Counted from the first letter of the stretch, positions 9,970 through 45,155 are shown. The stretch is 64,000 bases of DNA from Pseudomonadota bacterium (GCA_039192165.1 JBCCXD010000005.1:110727-174726); one strand, 5' to 3'. Numbers and translations: made by a program. Notes: a model not told the origin generated them from the sequence alone.

Positions 9970-10584
9970 TTAGTTGGTATGCGCCAGCGCTTTTTGGACG
10001 TTGGGCCGCTTTTTCACAGCCTCGTAATGCCGCGTGCAATTTCTGAATTCTGACAGGTCAAAGTCCTCACGCAGTGCGCGGTCATAGACCCAGAAAAAAT
10101 ATGAATCGCATGCCGTGTTATGGTCGAAGAACCAGGTACGGCCATCGAGTTCCTGCTCGACAAGAGCCATCTGCTCAAAGAACATCGCCTTCGCCTTGGC
10201 TTTGATGTCGTCATGCGCGCTCTCGATTTCGCAGAATTTGGCCACCCGAAAATGGCGGGTGATATGCGGGTGCATCCCTGAAGAAAACCAGTTCATGTAG
10301 GAAATTGCGCGTGCGCGTTCGAACCTGTCCTGTGGCAGCAGGTTGGCTTTGGGAAAGGCGCCGGCGATCCAGGTCTGAATCGCAGGATTCTCACTCAAAC
10401 CCTTCCCATCGACAACTAAATACGGAACTTTCTGCTTCGGATTGAGCGCCTTGTAACTCTCAGAGTTTTGCTCCTTTTTCGCGAGGCTGATCGACACAAC
10501 GTCGAAGTCGGCGCCCGCCTCCAGAAGAGAAACATAGGCGGCGATCGAACATGCGCCCGGAGCATGGTAAAGCGTGATAGTCAT
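9970..10584 (-). CDS. Glutathione S-transferase (beta-class-like)
   Basis: TLYHAPGACS, LNPKQKVPYL, LSENPAIQTWI. Confidence 0.92.
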   Translation of the reverse strand: MTITLYHAPGACSIAAYVSLLEAGADFDVVSISLAKKEQNSESYKALNPKQKVPYLVVDGKGLSENPAIQTWIAGAFPKANLLPQDRFERARAISYMNWFSSGMHPHITRHFRVAKFCEIESAHDDIKAKAKAMFFEQMALVEQELDGRTWFFDHNTACDSYFFWVYDRALREDFDLSEFRNCTRHYEAVKKRPNVQKALAHTN

Positions 10585-10789
10585 AGTCTTTCCTCTTGAA
10601 GGGTCTCAGCTCGCGCGGATGGTGCGCATTGGCGACGAGGCCGAACACTAACAGATATCCAAATGTGTCCAAGGTGCGCTTGCAGGTCATCAGAAATATC
10701 AATTAACAAACAGTAGGATACCACGCTCCACCTTGCGAGCCCCTAATAGCGTGGGCATGTCTAAGGCATGTATCCACTCGGAGGCTGCT

Positions 10790-11299
10790 ATGCAAAAAGT
10801 TGATTTGGATCGCTTCGTGGAAAAAGTGTTTTCTGCAAAACCATCTGGCACTCAGATCGACGACCTAAAGACTTTTTTTAAGACACAGTCAAAGAACCAC
10901 GACTTTTCTGAAACTGGCGCGGTATTTCGCTATATGGACGACCTCGACAACAAGAGTTCAGCGCTTCTTACCCACGTTTCAATGCTGATCGCAGCAGTCA
11001 GCATTATGCTCACTGTATTCGAAAACACAGTCGGCGATATTTTTCTTCTTCTAGAAGCCGCCGTCTACGTTGCCGTCGCCACCGGCCTTCTCCGATGCAT
11101 CAATATTGTGCGACCGGGTTTCCCACCAGAAGTCAACAAGTCGGCCCTGGCTGCCGAAGAAAACACAGAAGACTACGTTAATGCTATGGTCGAAGAAGCA
11201 GGAATACGACTAATCATTTATACGAAAGCAAGAGTAATAACCCTGTATGCGACACTAGCATTTCTTGCGGGTATCGTAGTTAAGTTGTTGTTCGGATGA
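10790..11299 (+). CDS. Hypothetical 3-TM membrane protein
   Basis: GGAGG RBS before ATG 10790; three hydrophobic segments; AT-rich codon usage. Confidence 0.7.
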   Translation: MQKVDLDRFVEKVFSAKPSGTQIDDLKTFFKTQSKNHDFSETGAVFRYMDDLDNKSSALLTHVSMLIAAVSIMLTVFENTVGDIFLLLEAAVYVAVATGLLRCINIVRPGFPPEVNKSALAAEENTEDYVNAMVEEAGIRLIIYTKARVITLYATLAFLAGIVVKLLFG

Positions 11300-40143: not shown

Positions 40144-41409
40144 CTAGCCGAACATGTCTGACGTTATGCCGGCATACCAACCAAGGCTTTCCTCATATGT
40201 CGCTTTTCGCAAGGCAGCGTCCTCTCCGGTTTCTGAAATGAACCCAGAAGTTCTGGCGATCTTTTCCTCGGTCGCCTCATATGACGCACCGACTTTCACG
40301 CCGTCGTCGGTCTCGATCAGCGACCAGCAGGTGTTGGAGAATTTCGCCGGGAAAACACGCGATCCTGTCAACGCCCCGCGCACAGCCATAGCCGCAACCT
40401 TGGCTTGGCTGTTGGCGGAGTAGCCGGATTTTGGCATATCACCCTGCTGGCTCGCATCGCCCAGAACGTGAATGTTCTCGTCCATGCGGCTTTGCATCGT
40501 TGCTGGTACCACAGGCGCCCAGCCCGCCTCATTTGTAATGCCGGCGAGCTCGGCTATGCGGCCGGCTTTTTGACCTGGAATCACATTGCAGACATCGACC
40601 TTCTCGACCTCGCCATCGATAACGACCTCCATCGCATCCGGGCGTAACTCAATGATATCGCCGCCAAAATCGGGGCCAACGCGTTCGATCATACCGCCAT
40701 AGTGGTTGTTCCACCCTTCTTCAAAAAGCCCTTGCTTGGAGAATTTCTCCTTAGGATCGACGATCAGAATTTTCGCAGTCGGATTTGTGTTCTTGAGTGT
40801 GTGCGCAACCATCGAAACCCGCTCATATGGGCCCGGTGGACAGCGATACGGGTTAGGAGGAGCAACCATGCAATAGGTACCGCCTTCGGGCATCGCTTCG
40901 ATCTGAGACTTGAGCAGCTGTGCTTGTGTGCCGCCTTTGTAGGCGTGAGGCATCGCATCCTGATCGGCCAGTGTCCATCCCGGCACGGTGTCTTCCCTGA
41001 AGTCGATACCCGGGCTAAGGATCAGGCGGTCATACGGCAGCAAACCGCCCCCCGCCAGGGCAACTGACTTCGCGTCGCGGTCCACGCCAATCGCCCAGTC
41101 ATGGACAACGTTGATGCCATACTCGGCGGCAAGTTTGCCGTAGCCATGCCCGAGATCGTCGTAGCTCTTGAAGCCGCCAAGATAGAGGTTCGAAAAGAAA
41201 CAGGTGTAATAGGTGCGCGTGGGCTCTACCAGGGTCACATCAATGGCGCCCTGGCTGTCTTTGGCAATGTAGCGTGCAGCAGTTGCGCCGCCTGCCCCGC
41301 CACCGATCACAACCACCCGTGGCCTGCCTTGGGCGCCCAGCATCGGCGCAGCAAGCGTTGCGGATACGGCCAGTGTGGTCCCGAGAAATCCTCGGCGTGA
41401 AAGTGTCAT
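40144..41409 (-). CDS. soxF: Flavocytochrome c sulfide dehydrogenase flavoprotein subunit
   Basis: Tat signal SRRGFL; VVIGGGAGGA; PYRCPPGPYER; MPKSGYSANSQAK; NTCWS. Confidence 0.92.
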   Translation of the reverse strand: MTLSRRGFLGTTLAVSATLAAPMLGAQGRPRVVVIGGGAGGATAARYIAKDSQGAIDVTLVEPTRTYYTCFFSNLYLGGFKSYDDLGHGYGKLAAEYGINVVHDWAIGVDRDAKSVALAGGGLLPYDRLILSPGIDFREDTVPGWTLADQDAMPHAYKGGTQAQLLKSQIEAMPEGGTYCMVAPPNPYRCPPGPYERVSMVAHTLKNTNPTAKILIVDPKEKFSKQGLFEEGWNNHYGGMIERVGPDFGGDIIELRPDAMEVVIDGEVEKVDVCNVIPGQKAGRIAELAGITNEAGWAPVVPATMQSRMDENIHVLGDASQQGDMPKSGYSANSQAKVAAMAVRGALTGSRVFPAKFSNTCWSLIETDDGVKVGASYEATEEKIARTSGFISETGEDAALRKATYEESLGWYAGITSDMFG

Positions 41410-41449
41410 AATCAATTTCTCCCCTATTGCGTTCCGTCCGACTCAGATG

Positions 41450-42223
41450 TCAGTCGGGCTCTTTAAAGTATGCGGCCAAGGCCGCGATTTCTTCGTCGCC
41501 AAGCCGGCCAGCGATCATTTGCATGACCGGGTTCGGCCGGATTCCTTGTTTGTACGAGTGCAACGCGATAACAAACTCTTCTTCGGGCCAATTGGTAATT
41601 GAAGGTATGCCCTGATAGGATCCGTCCGCCTGATGGCAGGTTATGCACTCAGCAGACAAATATGCCCCGTACTCCCGGTCCCCGGGTATGGCCAGAATTT
41701 CTGGTGCGAGTTCGGGTAGACTATGGCTTGCGGTGCGCTGTGCGCCCAAAAGAGGTTTCGGCGAAGCTGAGCGGGCTTGCATGACTACCAGAACACCCGC
41801 TTGGTCCGGCAGAAGAGTCGATGCCCGATAGTCCACCCGCGTATAAGACGGAAGACGGTCCAAGACACGAGGAGCCGCGTTGCTTGTTTCGAATTTCAAG
41901 GCGAGCGTTTCATCAGCACGGTGTTTTTTCTCGTCTGAGTAAAGCAGCTCTTTAACGGTGCCCTTTGGTTGAGAAAAAATATCATCAAGTCGCTGCGTCG
42001 GATCGGTTTCCGAGCAATATCCGCCGGGTTGGCAGAACTTGAATTGGACCAGCATTTGCGCGCCGCGTTCTGCAGCATCCGCCCAACCGCCGAATTGAAG
42101 GGAGCACAGTCCGAGGGCGACCAAAAAATCAAAAAATCTGCGGTCTCTTCCCTTGTCTGGGATCATTTTGAGCCAAGGTCTACGCAATAAGTGCATCAAG
42201 CTCCTCGTCCTTGCACACTCCAT
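41450..42223 (-). CDS. soxE: SoxE-like cytochrome c with a single intact CxxCH (C-terminal domain)
   Basis: PELAPEILAIPGDREYGAYLSAECITCHQ...GIPSITNWP...PVMQMIAGRL; position upstream of soxF; start uncertain. Confidence 0.75.
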   Translation of the reverse strand: MECARTRSLMHLLRRPWLKMIPDKGRDRRFFDFLVALGLCSLQFGGWADAAERGAQMLVQFKFCQPGGYCSETDPTQRLDDIFSQPKGTVKELLYSDEKKHRADETLALKFETSNAAPRVLDRLPSYTRVDYRASTLLPDQAGVLVVMQARSASPKPLLGAQRTASHSLPELAPEILAIPGDREYGAYLSAECITCHQADGSYQGIPSITNWPEEEFVIALHSYKQGIRPNPVMQMIAGRLGDEEIAALAAYFKEPD

Positions 42224-42403
42224 TAAAGAACACTTTGGAGTGCGGGATAAAGCCCTAAGGATTAGCGACGAGAAAAAGAAAGGGCCTGGCCCTGTGAGCG
42301 GACCCGAATTGTAGCTGTCTATCAGGGTACGGACGCACTTGATCTCAGCCGCCCCTTTTTTCGAATGATCACGGTTTTCGCTGAGCCGAAGGCAGCTCTG
42401 TCC

Positions 42404-42733
42404 CTAGGAGAGTGCTATGGACTTGGATGCGGTGTACACAGAACCGTCGTCGTCGTACCAGGTAAACACGAACTCGCCCGCGCTTGGGATCTTTGCGTCA
42501 AACTGAAAGTACGGGTTCGCGGAGATGCCCGGCTCCATCGCTACATCGATGACGCTCTCGCCATTAAACTCCGCAGTGAAGCGGTTGATAATCGAACGGG
42601 GGATCAACTTTCCGTCTTTGTCTCTGCGCTGTCCTGACTCCATTCTGTGGCTGATCAGGGTCTTGATCGTAACAGTCTCACCAGCGGAGGCAGACTTTGG
42701 AAGTTTAACACGGGGTTTCACATCTTGAGCCAT
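42404..42733 (-). CDS. soxZ: Thiosulfate oxidation carrier protein SoxZ
   Basis: TLISHRMESGQRRD, PRSIINRF, ISANPYFQF. Confidence 0.95.
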   Translation of the reverse strand: MAQDVKPRVKLPKSASAGETVTIKTLISHRMESGQRRDKDGKLIPRSIINRFTAEFNGESVIDVAMEPGISANPYFQFDAKIPSAGEFVFTWYDDDGSVYTASKSIALS

Positions 42734-42753
42734 TTTCTGGACCTCCTCTTCAG

Positions 42754-43170
42754 TCAGCTGCCGCAGCCGCCGACGGTCACTGTCACACTGTGACTGTCGC
42801 GAACGAATGAGCCGTCCGACATTTTCGCCACGGCCACAACGGTCTGCGAACCTGCAAGGCGGATCCGAGTTGAGGCAGCCTGCTCACCCGCCAACGCCCC
42901 GAAAGAAAACCTCGCAACCGGAGGCACAGGATTTCCAAGGGCCAGGACCATAATCTCGGTGGCGCCGGGCGCATTCACACTGATTGGAACCGCGTTTCCG
43001 TTCTCAGCAATTTCAGGGATGGTAAGCGTCACTCCCCCAGTACCGACATCCGCGCCGCCCGTGAAAGCCTCAAGCGCACTCTCTGCGGTCGCAAATCCCG
43101 TGGATGGCAAAGCCAAGACCAATGCAGTACCAGCGCCAATAGCCAGGGTATCTCGTCTCGTTAGGGTCAT
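42754..43170 (-). CDS. soxY: Thiosulfate oxidation carrier protein SoxY
   Basis: Tat signal TRRDTL; PEIAENGNAVP, STRIRL, C-terminal VTVGGCGS; AGGAGG RBS before ATG 43170. Confidence 0.93.
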   Translation of the reverse strand: MTLTRRDTLAIGAGTALVLALPSTGFATAESALEAFTGGADVGTGGVTLTIPEIAENGNAVPISVNAPGATEIMVLALGNPVPPVARFSFGALAGEQAASTRIRLAGSQTVVAVAKMSDGSFVRDSHSVTVTVGGCGS

Positions 43171-43189
43171 CCTGTAGCTCCTCCTGTAG

Positions 43190-43470
43190 AGAACTCCGCT
43201 TGGATTGCTCGCTCGTGCTCGTCTGTCCGCTGACGATGCACCTAATCTCAGCATCTTGCCAACACCGATGCAACTCAGGGCGTTGCGGCTTTGCCAGTAT
43301 GTACGCCACTTGGGTGAACCCAGCGCGTCCGTCGAGTTACTGCTGCCGCCGTAGTGCCTATAGACATGTCGTATATGTTCGCAACTGCCTACAAAACAAC
43401 ATCTGGGATCGAAAAAACGTGCTTCCTGAAGAAACGGGGGTGAGTTTAGCCCCGATATGTCGACAGGCAC
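43190..43470 (-). pseudogene. soxX: Probable decayed soxX remnant
   Basis: In the usual soxX position; one frame reads stop-AVANIYDMSIGT...HPSGVHTGKAATP-stop, colinear with remembered SoxX IVANAKMMFEGT...RPGNAYTGKAA; internal stops, no CxxCH. Confidence 0.45.
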
Positions 43471-43533: not shown

Positions 43534-44574
43534 TCAGGGCGCCAGAAGAAGGTCGGAAGAAAGCTCACCCCCGGGCCCAGGCACAAAGGAATGCTGTGCA
43601 CGCCCACTTCGCTTGGAAACATAGGTGGCCTCATCGGCATCCGAGAGGAGCTTATCAACCTCAGGGGGGTCATAGAACGAAGACAGTGTAATGCCAATGC
43701 TGGCGGAAATACGCGCGGTCTCCCCTTCGAAGTCAATTGGTTCTTCGAGTTTTCCAATAATCCGTTCAGCGATGCGTCCCAGCAGTCCCTTGTCGTCGCA
43801 GTCTCGGATCAGCAAAACAAACTCATCCCCACCAACGCGGCAGACAACGTCATCCCCGCGTGTCTCCGTGCGCAAAACATCTGCGACTTTCAAAAGAACT
43901 GCGTCGCCGGCGGCGTGGCCAAGCGTATCATTGACCGCTTTGAAGTGATCAAGATCGAGATGCATAACACCAAAGCCGACACGACCCGGGGCAGCAACCA
44001 GGTCCTCGAGCGCGGCGTCCATAGCGCGTCGGTTGTTCAATCCGGTCAAGGTGTCGGTCAAGGCCCGACGTTCAGCTTCACGTTTGGCCTGCTGGAGCTT
44101 TTCATTCAGTGAGCGCGACTCCGCCATTACAGCGGCATTTGCTTCGATCAGATAGAGCATTTCGACCGCGAGGTCCGAGGCCGCGAAGTCTCCTATATCA
44201 AGCTTAAAGCGCCGAACAGCTTCCTGCACGGAAATACCGAACGATAGGTTCAAAAATGCGCCACTCCCAGAAGGCAATGCAGTAGCCACGCCCTTCAGCG
44301 ACAAACCAGGCACATCCCGCAAGACGACCTTGATTTGCACCGAGTTCAGGTTCAGAACCTCCTCGATCGAACACAGTTCTCGCGGTCGGCGAAACTCCAG
44401 AACCTCAAACAGGAGCTGCCCTTCAACCCGACTTTGATCGGTGATCCGCCGAAGTGCGCGCCCCACATGGAGGATATGCCCTGTTGCACCCATCCAGAGA
44501 TGCATGGGCATCAGGTCGTCTAGGATGTTGGCCGGCAAGTTGAGAAAGCTTGTGTCGTTGCTACTTGGCGTCAT
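43534..44574 (-). CDS. Diguanylate cyclase with N-terminal HNOBA-like PAS region
   Basis: TDTLTGLNNRR, DLDHFKAVND, RGDD I-site, VGGDEF. Confidence 0.92.
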   Translation of the reverse strand: MTPSSNDTSFLNLPANILDDLMPMHLWMGATGHILHVGRALRRITDQSRVEGQLLFEVLEFRRPRELCSIEEVLNLNSVQIKVVLRDVPGLSLKGVATALPSGSGAFLNLSFGISVQEAVRRFKLDIGDFAASDLAVEMLYLIEANAAVMAESRSLNEKLQQAKREAERRALTDTLTGLNNRRAMDAALEDLVAAPGRVGFGVMHLDLDHFKAVNDTLGHAAGDAVLLKVADVLRTETRGDDVVCRVGGDEFVLLIRDCDDKGLLGRIAERIIGKLEEPIDFEGETARISASIGITLSSFYDPPEVDKLLSDADEATYVSKRSGRAQHSFVPGPGGELSSDLLLAP

Positions 44575-45155
44575 GCAGGAGCTCCCAGATCAAACTCCCG
44601 TCCTTCCGAAAACGCACGGTCAAGAACGGCGATCTCTATGGTTGGGTGACCATTCCCATCCTCTGCCACCTCAGTAAATGCCAATGCTCCATAGTCATCT
44701 GCCATGGCGCGCAGAATGCCCGAAATAACAAAGATCCCGTCTTTGCGATGCCATTCATAGGCAATTTGATATCGCTTTTCGGCTAGAGGTTTGAGTTCAA
44801 GCGCCGGAACATCGAGACCTGGAACCGCCAAGCGGGCGCGCCCCCTGAGATCTTCCAGCGCGTTCAGAAAATCCGAAAAACTGGCCCCACAGAACCGCAG
44901 CAAACGGCGCAGCGCCGGCCTCTCCGGATGGGAAATGATGTACGTGCCCATATCTTCGAGGATGGTCGCGCTGGGTTTGTCGAGCTCCTGGCATGCCGCT
45001 TCCAGTGTCTGGTCGAAGACCTTCTCAGGATAGTAGAGCATGGTTTCGAATTGTGCATCCGGTACTCCGGCCTGTTCGGCAATACGCAACCAAACCTCGC
45101 CACCATATGTGTCTTCCAGGAAGCGCTGTATCGACTTGGTAATCAGCCCATGCAT
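44571..45155 (-). CDS. H-NOX (heme NO-binding) family protein
   Basis: MHGLITKSIQRFLEDTYG N-terminus typical of H-NOX; stop overlaps the GGDEF start. Confidence 0.85.
   Translation of the reverse strand: MHGLITKSIQRFLEDTYGGEVWLRIAEQAGVPDAQFETMLYYPEKVFDQTLEAACQELDKPSATILEDMGTYIISHPERPALRRLLRFCGASFSDFLNALEDLRGRARLAVPGLDVPALELKPLAEKRYQIAYEWHRKDGIFVISGILRAMADDYGALAFTEVAEDGNGHPTIEIAVLDRAFSEGREFDLGAPA

Follow-up and report, generated by a model that had tools for sequence, protein, structure and literature searches.

A sox island reduced by two deletions to soxY, soxZ, soxE and soxF in a relative of Dinoroseobacter

The present work concerns a reduced sox locus in a stretch of 64,000 nucleotides from an uncultured marine Pseudomonadota bacterium (GCA_039192165.1, JBCCXD010000005.1:110727-174726, i.e., C5:110727-174726), hereafter the window. 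Four genes of the Sox sulfur-oxidation system lie there in the order soxY-soxZ-soxE-soxF, all on the minus strand and just downstream of an H-NOX/GGDEF gene pair. They are soxY (42754-43170; 138 amino acids, aa; PF13501), soxZ (42404-42733; 109 aa; PF08770, 6e-30), whose start lies 20 bp downstream of soxY, a soxE-like cytochrome c gene (41450-42196; 248 aa according to the gene caller), and soxF (40144-41409; 421 aa), which encodes the flavoprotein subunit, exported by twin-arginine translocation (Tat), of a flavocytochrome c sulfide dehydrogenase (FCSD) of the FccB type. The gap between soxZ and soxE measures 180 bp to the longest open reading frame (ORF) and 207 bp to the likely soxE start, and position 43470 is the start of the longest soxY ORF and not the likely soxY start codon. 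An earlier account made without database searches, the sequence-only reading, had the coordinates, the gene order, the gap of about 180 bp and the GGDEF gene upstream all right.

SoxF contains both FCSD domains (FCSD_central, PF21706, 7.8e-45; FCSD-flav_bind, PF09242, 5.8e-21) and is similar over its full length to the solved FccB subunits of Thioalkalivibrio paradoxus (5N1T_A, 4.5e-103), Allochromatium vinosum (1FCD_A, 8.6e-96) and Thermochromatium tepidum (3VRD_B), with E values ranging from 1e-94 to 1e-103. Alignment A1 shows no variation at Cys70 (YYTCFFSN), Cys190 (YRCPPGPYER) and Cys361 (NTCWS), which presumably are the cysteine in thioether linkage to flavin adenine dinucleotide (FAD) and the redox-active cysteine pair of 1FCD. 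When columns at least 95% conserved in full sox clusters were considered (51 such clusters compared), one of 211 was altered in SoxF.

SoxZ reaches 105.1 bits with TIGR04490 (SoxZ_true), for which the cut-off is 76. SoxY, whose N-terminus MTLTRRDTLAIGAG carries the Tat signal MTLTRRD and whose gene adjoins soxZ, scores at the borderline of TIGR04488 (SoxY_true_GGCGG), with 126.0 bits vs a cut-off of 125; the SoxY of G005, the closest genome and our reference for synteny (SoxF 90% identical to that of the window), scores 139.6. The window proteins are 73% (SoxY) and 79% (SoxZ) identical to those of G005. The carrier cysteine of SoxY is kept, but the carrier arm ends in VTVGGCGS instead of the GGCGG found in 46/46 full-cluster SoxY proteins. 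Conserved columns are altered at 2 of 44 positions in SoxZ and at 5 of 47 in SoxY.

SoxE is the protein that has changed in its domain structure. Its orthology and its position directly upstream of soxF identify the gene, yet it contains a single CxxCH motif (CITCH), whereas the other 86 SoxE proteins examined all have two. The C-terminal heme domain (41450..41776, minus strand; Pfam Cytochrom_C) contains this motif, is FccA-like and conserved, and matches 5N1T_B, the mono-heme cytochrome subunit of the Thioalkalivibrio FCSD (1.7e-7). The N-terminal domain (41777..42073, minus strand), a former cytochrome c2-like heme domain, is degenerate with its frame open: CSGCH has turned into FCQPGGYC and the Met ligand into Val, such that the Cys, His and Met ligands are all replaced. 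Out of 73 conserved columns 26 are altered, 24 of them in the N-domain and 2 in the C-domain, and against the SoxE of G005 (228 aa aligned) the identity is 48% overall and about 80% in the C-domain. In canonical SoxE the N-domain matches cytochrome c2/c552 (PDB 8ED4, 1CO6) with E values of 1e-27 to 1e-28. In a collection of 5.8 billion sequences nothing exceeds 55% identity to the SoxE of the window, and the nearest proteins are diheme and stand behind soxD. The signal peptide and a new start region occupy 42074..42196 (minus strand). Since the ancestral start ATG at 42166 reads AGG in a second strain (L040), where translation must begin upstream, ATG 42196, which follows GAGGAG and lies in former soxD 3' DNA read in another frame, is likely the current soxE start. 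The sequence-only reading had called the module intact, and this holds for SoxF; it does not hold for the N-terminal heme domain of SoxE or for the SoxY arm with its GGCGS end. Compared with FccAB of the three structures named above, to which SoxF and the SoxE C-domain correspond, the window cytochrome differs by an additional, vestigial domain at its N-terminus, and the genes stand together with soxYZ. As a side observation, canonical alphaproteobacterial SoxE (the soxE of G005, L022 14918-15640, and homologues) is a cytochrome c2-like N-domain of the mitochondrial type fused to an FccA-like C-domain, unlike the diheme FccA of Allochromatium over the whole length.

All statements on the absence of sox genes cover the whole assembly of 18 contigs (3.74 Mb, 92.45% complete). 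The SoxA model found no match there, and the SoxB model found only 5'-nucleotidase paralogues (at most 127 bits vs a cut-off of 550). Likewise, tblastn with SoxX, SoxA, SoxC, SoxV, SoxW and SoxR of G005 and two accessory ORFs found nothing, and with SoxD and the SoxE N-domain of G005 it found generic cytochromes c only. soxYZ is present at one locus only. Thus soxYZ adjoins soxEF (fccAB) in a genome where neither soxAX nor soxB was found, and the complete Sox thiosulfate-oxidising system (SoxAX, SoxB and SoxCD) is missing from a 92% complete assembly. The absence of soxABCD and of the upstream sox genes, as seen in the window by the sequence-only reading, extends to the assembly (SoxAX, SoxB, SoxCD and SoxRSVW), and a complete soxXABCD set elsewhere, which would have spoken against its argument, was searched for in the assembly and not found. 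The window cluster is therefore predicted to be unable to oxidise thiosulfate by the canonical Sox route.

The canonical alphaproteobacterial cluster, soxRSVWXYZABCDEF, is represented by Paracoccus pantotrophus, Dinoroseobacter shibae (G002) and Tropicimonas sp. S265A (G005), and the Ruegeria pomeroyi cluster is soxVWXYZABCDEF (PMC9769926). With the canonical cluster the window shares orthologous soxY, soxZ, soxE and soxF in the same order, the chromosomal site and the H-NOX/GGDEF flank, and the SoxF proteins are 84-90% identical; it differs in lacking soxX, A, B, C and D, soxR, S, V and W and the soxT/yeeE-like gene, in the one heme rather than two of SoxE, and in GGCGS rather than GGCGG in SoxY. 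The SoxE of G005 is identical to a Tropicimonas sp. S265A protein, and protein matches link G002 to Dinoroseobacter shibae DFL12 and G012 to Dinoroseobacter sp. S375; because of these matches, the window genome is placed in the GTDB genus that holds Dinoroseobacter. A common layout was observed in G005, G010, G012, G013 and G002, i.e., H-NOX, GGDEF, an opposite-strand yeeE/soxT-like gene with soxR and two ORFs, and then soxV-W-X-Y-Z-A-B-C-D-E-F. In blastn the window follows G005 colinearly through either flank, soxYZ and soxEF, with a break at two gaps only. At the first, about 4.1 kb (yeeE/soxT to soxX) is missing between the GGDEF gene and soxY, with 363 bp left; at the second, about 4.9 kb (soxABCD) is missing between soxZ and soxE, with about 200 bp left.

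The second gap still holds the right edge of the deletion. The spacer between soxZ and soxE retains the last ~30 codons of soxD (42168..42269, minus strand), which were detected by tblastx (44-48% identity over 29-34 aa to the soxD C-terminus of G005, G002, G012 and G013, E 1e-4 to 4e-4) and by blastn (61-63% over 126 nt, E 1e-7). A possible stub of the soxX 3' end at the left deletion edge (43260..43322, minus strand) is a weak case, in which the tblastx matches (43% over 21 aa for G005, G010, G012 and G013; 53% over 15 aa for G002) are consistent, yet each singly insignificant. Mobile elements or repeats marking the deletion edges were considered and rejected, only short repeats at chance level being present there. 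The locus is a remnant of a Roseobacter-type sox island after two separate deletions in situ, and the claim of the sequence-only reading that the thiosulfate cycle had been deleted is borne out by the two breaks in colinearity and the surviving soxD stub. The SoxF tree groups the window with G005 as its sister (100/99) within the full-cluster clade, and the SoxY+SoxZ tree agrees with this placement (0.992), so the window sox genes appear to be vertically inherited. The whole island can also be absent at this site, because in the sox-less congeners G014 (L121 11679-13098) and G006 (L122 11826-13361) dtd abuts GGDEF, with gaps of 20 and 118 bp. Four of 15 congeners are without any SoxB, SoxF or SoxZ, and a partial set occurs in the window only. 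The same site in G014 and G006 is also without a polysaccharide-lyase-like gene and the gene for a 580-aa membrane protein found in the window.

The genome is apparently a metagenome-assembled genome (MAG), in 18 contigs and incomplete as stated above, and the locus is identical to a contig of one metagenomic run, which would leave room for mis-assembly or for missing sox genes in the unrecovered 8% of the genome. We consider such an artefact highly improbable. The locus is embedded in a contig of 320 kb and has conserved sequence to either side, and the soxZ-soxE junction is not an assembly artefact because the same junction is carried by a 98.7%-identical contig from an independent run (SRR22824304). 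Long evolution after the deletion is evident from the decayed SoxE domain and from the stubs of genes, and in 51/51 full clusters soxABCD stands between soxZ and soxE (with a few minor rearrangements), never at a second site.

The same four genes are found together elsewhere. Among 93 loci examined, with SoxF at least 70% identical to that of the window, 51 are full clusters, 20 others (the window excluded) have soxY-soxZ-soxE-soxF, 3 have soxEF facing soxZY, and 18 have soxEF or soxF only or lie on contigs too short to classify. The 20 soxYZEF loci, which we call natural modules, belong to uncultured Rhodobacterales and other Alphaproteobacteria and form one clade in the SoxF tree (100/97) and in the SoxYZ tree (1.0). 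SoxB is absent from 20/20 of their genomes and from 3/3 genomes with the inverted arrangement. Like the window, the natural modules show this gene order without SoxB, a YeeE homologue in the genome and a SoxY arm that is not GGCGG and has V before GGC; their SoxY termini are GGCG, GGCA or GGC, never GGCGG, and natural-module SoxY scores 104.3 bits with TIGR04488, below the cut-off. Unlike the window, they keep both hemes in SoxE and have the yeeE-like gene adjacent (in the window genome it is on another contig), and they are a separate monophyletic lineage, with SoxF 74-77% and SoxYZ at most 52% identical to the window proteins. Common descent of the two as soxYZEF modules is not what the trees indicate: because the window nests in the full-cluster Dinoroseobacter clade while the natural modules form their own, the two represent independent origins. 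We found no paper in the literature on an alphaproteobacterial soxYZEF-only locus or on the clade of 20 genomes.

At the level of residues, three of the five altered SoxY columns (T60A, T108S and I133V) carry the residue commonest in natural modules; at the K130 column Lys is lost in natural modules too, and the G138 column is absent from them. Horizontal transfer of soxYZ from the natural-module clade was considered as an explanation for these convergent arm residues and rejected, given identities of at most 52% and trees that group the window with its congeners. In 18/20 natural modules a gene for a yeeE/tsuA-like membrane protein is adjacent on the opposite strand, and beyond soxYZEF and yeeE no other conserved gene was found in them. 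The yeeE-like homologue of the window genome lies outside the window (contig C1:405201-406292; 52-56% identical), and within the genus this gene goes with the sox genes: genomes that bear sox have it, and it is missing from the four that do not. A TusA/YeeD-like partner for it was sought and rejected, as no small ORF with CPxP was found nearby and its neighbours are not sulfur genes.

The natural modules are L024, L025, L028, L037, L038, L050, L052, L056, L059, L061, L062, L064, L072, L077, L080, L088, L101, L103, L115 and L118, with soxF at ~10001-11260 in most. Six of them, the long-read MAGs L050, L056, L059, L061, L064 and L101, are titled Thermodesulfobacteriota, Binatia or Gammaproteobacteria, and their SoxF proteins are 74-76% identical to Rhodobacterales proteins and nested among alphaproteobacterial ones; either these titles name the wrong group or the module has crossed from one phylum to another. 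In L048, L084 and L087, MAGs without SoxB, the four genes are arranged in a third way, with soxE-soxF on one strand and soxZ-soxY after it on the other.

On these grounds we favour the reading that the remnant probably encodes a periplasmic sulfide:cytochrome c oxidoreductase with SoxYZ as its sulfane carrier. From the parts present we infer an enzyme activity, an acceptor role for SoxYZ and a fate of the sulfur. SoxF, an FAD flavoprotein with its presumed redox-active cysteines intact, would oxidise sulfide and pass the electrons to the sole remaining SoxE heme in the FccA-like C-domain, which would in turn reduce a free cytochrome c as the putative acceptor. SoxEF would now be effectively mono-heme, like the 5N1T enzyme. 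The arm cysteine of SoxY may bind the zero-valent sulfur in persulfide or polysulfide form, SoxYZ being the carrier. Without SoxB and SoxCD no sulfate would be released in the periplasm, and the sulfur would leave as S0 or polysulfide or be handed on, possibly to a YeeE-type membrane protein such as the one whose gene comes fifth in the natural soxYZEF modules. The retention of the same four-gene set as in other SoxB-less bacteria suggests that SoxYZ and the flavocytochrome work as a pair.

Selection on the four genes was then compared with that on neighbouring ones. With synonymous sites saturated between the window and G005, branch rates and omega are approximate; as they stand, the window/G005 ratio of nonsynonymous branch divergence (dN) and the parsimony ratio of nonsynonymous to synonymous change (pN/pS) on the window branch are 0.6 and 0.04 for SoxF, 1.3 and 0.16 for GGDEF, 1.1 and 0.11 for H-NOX, 3.1 and 0.19 for SoxY, 5.2 and 0.16 for SoxZ, 3.7 and 0.15 for the SoxE C-domain, and 4.6 (absolute dN 0.71) and 0.64 for the SoxE N-domain. 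SoxYZ and the SoxE heme domain are thus relaxed relative to their own past and constrained about like ordinary neighbour genes. Two strains differ at 17 sites; soxY has 1 and soxZ 2 synonymous differences with 0 nonsynonymous in either, and the N-terminal part of soxE has 4 changed residues. Between the strains the divergence of soxYZ is one-sixth that of the adjoining DNA (3/747 vs 14/587, Fisher p=0.002). The view of the sequence-only reading that a SoxYZ-flavocytochrome module is kept under selection therefore stands as far as the pN/pS values of 0.04-0.19 and the soxYZ polymorphism go, and has to be qualified by the three- to five-fold relaxation of SoxYZ and SoxE against the sister lineage. 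Its suggestion of a separate selected function for the retained genes finds support in this constraint and in the SoxB-less soxYZEF parallels.

A number of observations weigh against the oxidoreductase reading, starting with the saturation just mentioned, and several of them would also suit a decay in progress, with soxY, soxZ and soxE as functionless leftovers and at most SoxF active. The evolutionary rates of SoxY, SoxZ and the SoxE C-domain exceed those in the sister lineage 3-5 fold, a pattern that fits early decay too. In a simulation of neutral substitution the soxYZ frame stays open by chance with P(no stop) of 0.2-0.45, for which reason ORF intactness was rejected as proof of selection on soxYZ, and a short, recent, fully neutral phase of soxYZ may fit the divergence data as well. 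SoxE has lost, with its CxxCH and Met ligand, a heme domain kept by all 20 natural modules, and the terminal Gly of SoxY has become Ser. soxR, soxVW(S), whose products keep SoxYZ reduced in Paracoccus, and the native promoter region are deleted, and a consensus scan found no sigma-70-like promoter upstream of soxY; read-through into soxYZEF from the H-NOX/GGDEF pair, which now precedes soxY by 363 bp on its own strand, is possible. Neither a sulfide source nor a sink or downstream route for sulfane sulfur was identified, SoeABC, persulfide dioxygenase and rhodaneses not having been inventoried. Periplasmic sulfide from methanethiol oxidase was dropped as a candidate, no SBP56/MTO (methanethiol oxidase) homologue being found in the genome. 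A further point for decay is that four congeners have lost the whole island.

Nevertheless, decay appears unlikely to us as the explanation of the locus. The pN/pS values of SoxY, SoxZ and the SoxE C-domain (0.15-0.19) are not near 1, while the SoxE N-domain, at 0.64, shows what true relaxation looks like here; the absence of nonsynonymous differences in soxYZ and its low divergence between strains point the same way. The open frame of soxE, kept despite about 60% divergence of its N-domain, is moderate evidence of constraint (P=0.02-0.06 under neutral substitution, i.e., 2-6% of substitution-only simulation runs). Moreover, both deletions stop just upstream of soxY and of soxE, and exactly the retained genes make up the conserved module in 20 SoxB-less genomes.

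A last point against SoxYZ as the carrier in the oxidoreductase reading is that SoxF occurs in G025, a genome without any SoxZ, because of which the partnership of SoxF and SoxYZ cannot be obligatory. SoxEF might then act alone as a sulfide-detoxifying flavocytochrome, with SoxYZ kept for an unrelated role, e.g., in periplasmic sulfite or thiosulfate handling by way of another enzyme, or with the soxYZ DNA kept for signals that express soxEF. FCSD enzymes act without SoxYZ in vitro, soxEF-only loci exist, a short terminator-like hairpin with a T run (42281..42293, minus strand; weak, from a consensus scan) lies between soxZ and soxE, and Dahl et al. (2013) reportedly connect SoxYZ with the oxidation of sulfite in Allochromatium vinosum. 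We give this account little credence all the same. A role in DNA only is contradicted by the protein-level constraint on SoxYZ, soxYZ stands beside soxEF in 23 further SoxB-less genomes, and no other SoxYZ-using enzyme (SoxAX, SoxB, SoxCD or SorA-like) was found in the window genome. The soxEF-only genomes G080 and G081, with the same SoxF type, have true SoxB and SoxZ elsewhere in the genome, and three Arenicellales soxEF-only genomes have SoxZ and a SoxB-like match below the cut-off.

To our knowledge, the in-vivo role of FCSD and the acceptor of its sulfur atom have never been settled. One may go further and propose, tentatively and with more doubt than belief, that SoxYZ is the physiological sulfur acceptor of FCSD. 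SoxYZ, SoxEF (FccAB) and a YeeE-type protein would then make up a unit that oxidises sulfide by itself, with no need of SoxAX or SoxB, and that has at least three origins. One would lie in the green sulfur bacteria, one in the SoxB-less alphaproteobacterial clade, and one in the step-by-step shortening of the cluster in the present Dinoroseobacter lineage. In the SoxY arm, the missing terminal GG, the Val in place of Ile and the lost Lys would then be a re-tuning to a single partner.

In kind, a SoxB-independent soxYZ with flavocytochrome c is already known from green sulfur bacteria, and the window is a variant whose ancestral cluster is known. PMC10158934, citing Gregersen et al. 2011, describes green sulfur bacteria that have a soxYZ-fccAB cluster and neither soxAX nor soxB; the likeness lies in a SoxYZ carrier pair adjoining FCSD with no SoxAX or SoxB, and the difference in another phylum and other protein lineages, with a putative function in both cases. 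Unlike the green sulfur cluster, the window is a recent reduction of a complete cluster. Partial Sox systems such as soxX2Y2Z2A2F2 of Starkeya novella (PMC3797975) and those of purple sulfur bacteria without SoxCD also hold a Sox subset including SoxYZ and a SoxF-type flavoprotein; unlike the window, they keep SoxAX and usually SoxB and can still load or process thiosulfate. The window therefore offers a natural experiment, in which a full cluster was pared to exactly soxYZ and soxEF and converged on an architecture kept by other lineages. This reduction points to SoxYZ as the likely partner of the flavocytochrome, and it yields a few definite residues and genes on which experiments can be made. 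A further consequence is that counts of soxY and soxZ in metagenomes can mislead when used as markers of thiosulfate oxidation.

As for the surroundings, a consensus scan of the region gave 11 terminator-like hairpin sites vs 5.6 expected. The polysaccharide-lyase-like gene (PF14099; 39006-40025), which lies between soxF and dtd, is in G005 and not in the sox-less congeners. Upstream of soxY, on the minus strand, lie the gene for an HNOBA-GGDEF diguanylate cyclase (43534-44574; Pfam GGDEF 9e-41, HNOBA 1.7e-7) and that for an H-NOX haem-NO-binding sensor (44571-45155; 194 aa; PF07700, 5e-24), a pair that is syntenic across the genus (G005, G010, G012, G013 and G002), D. shibae included.

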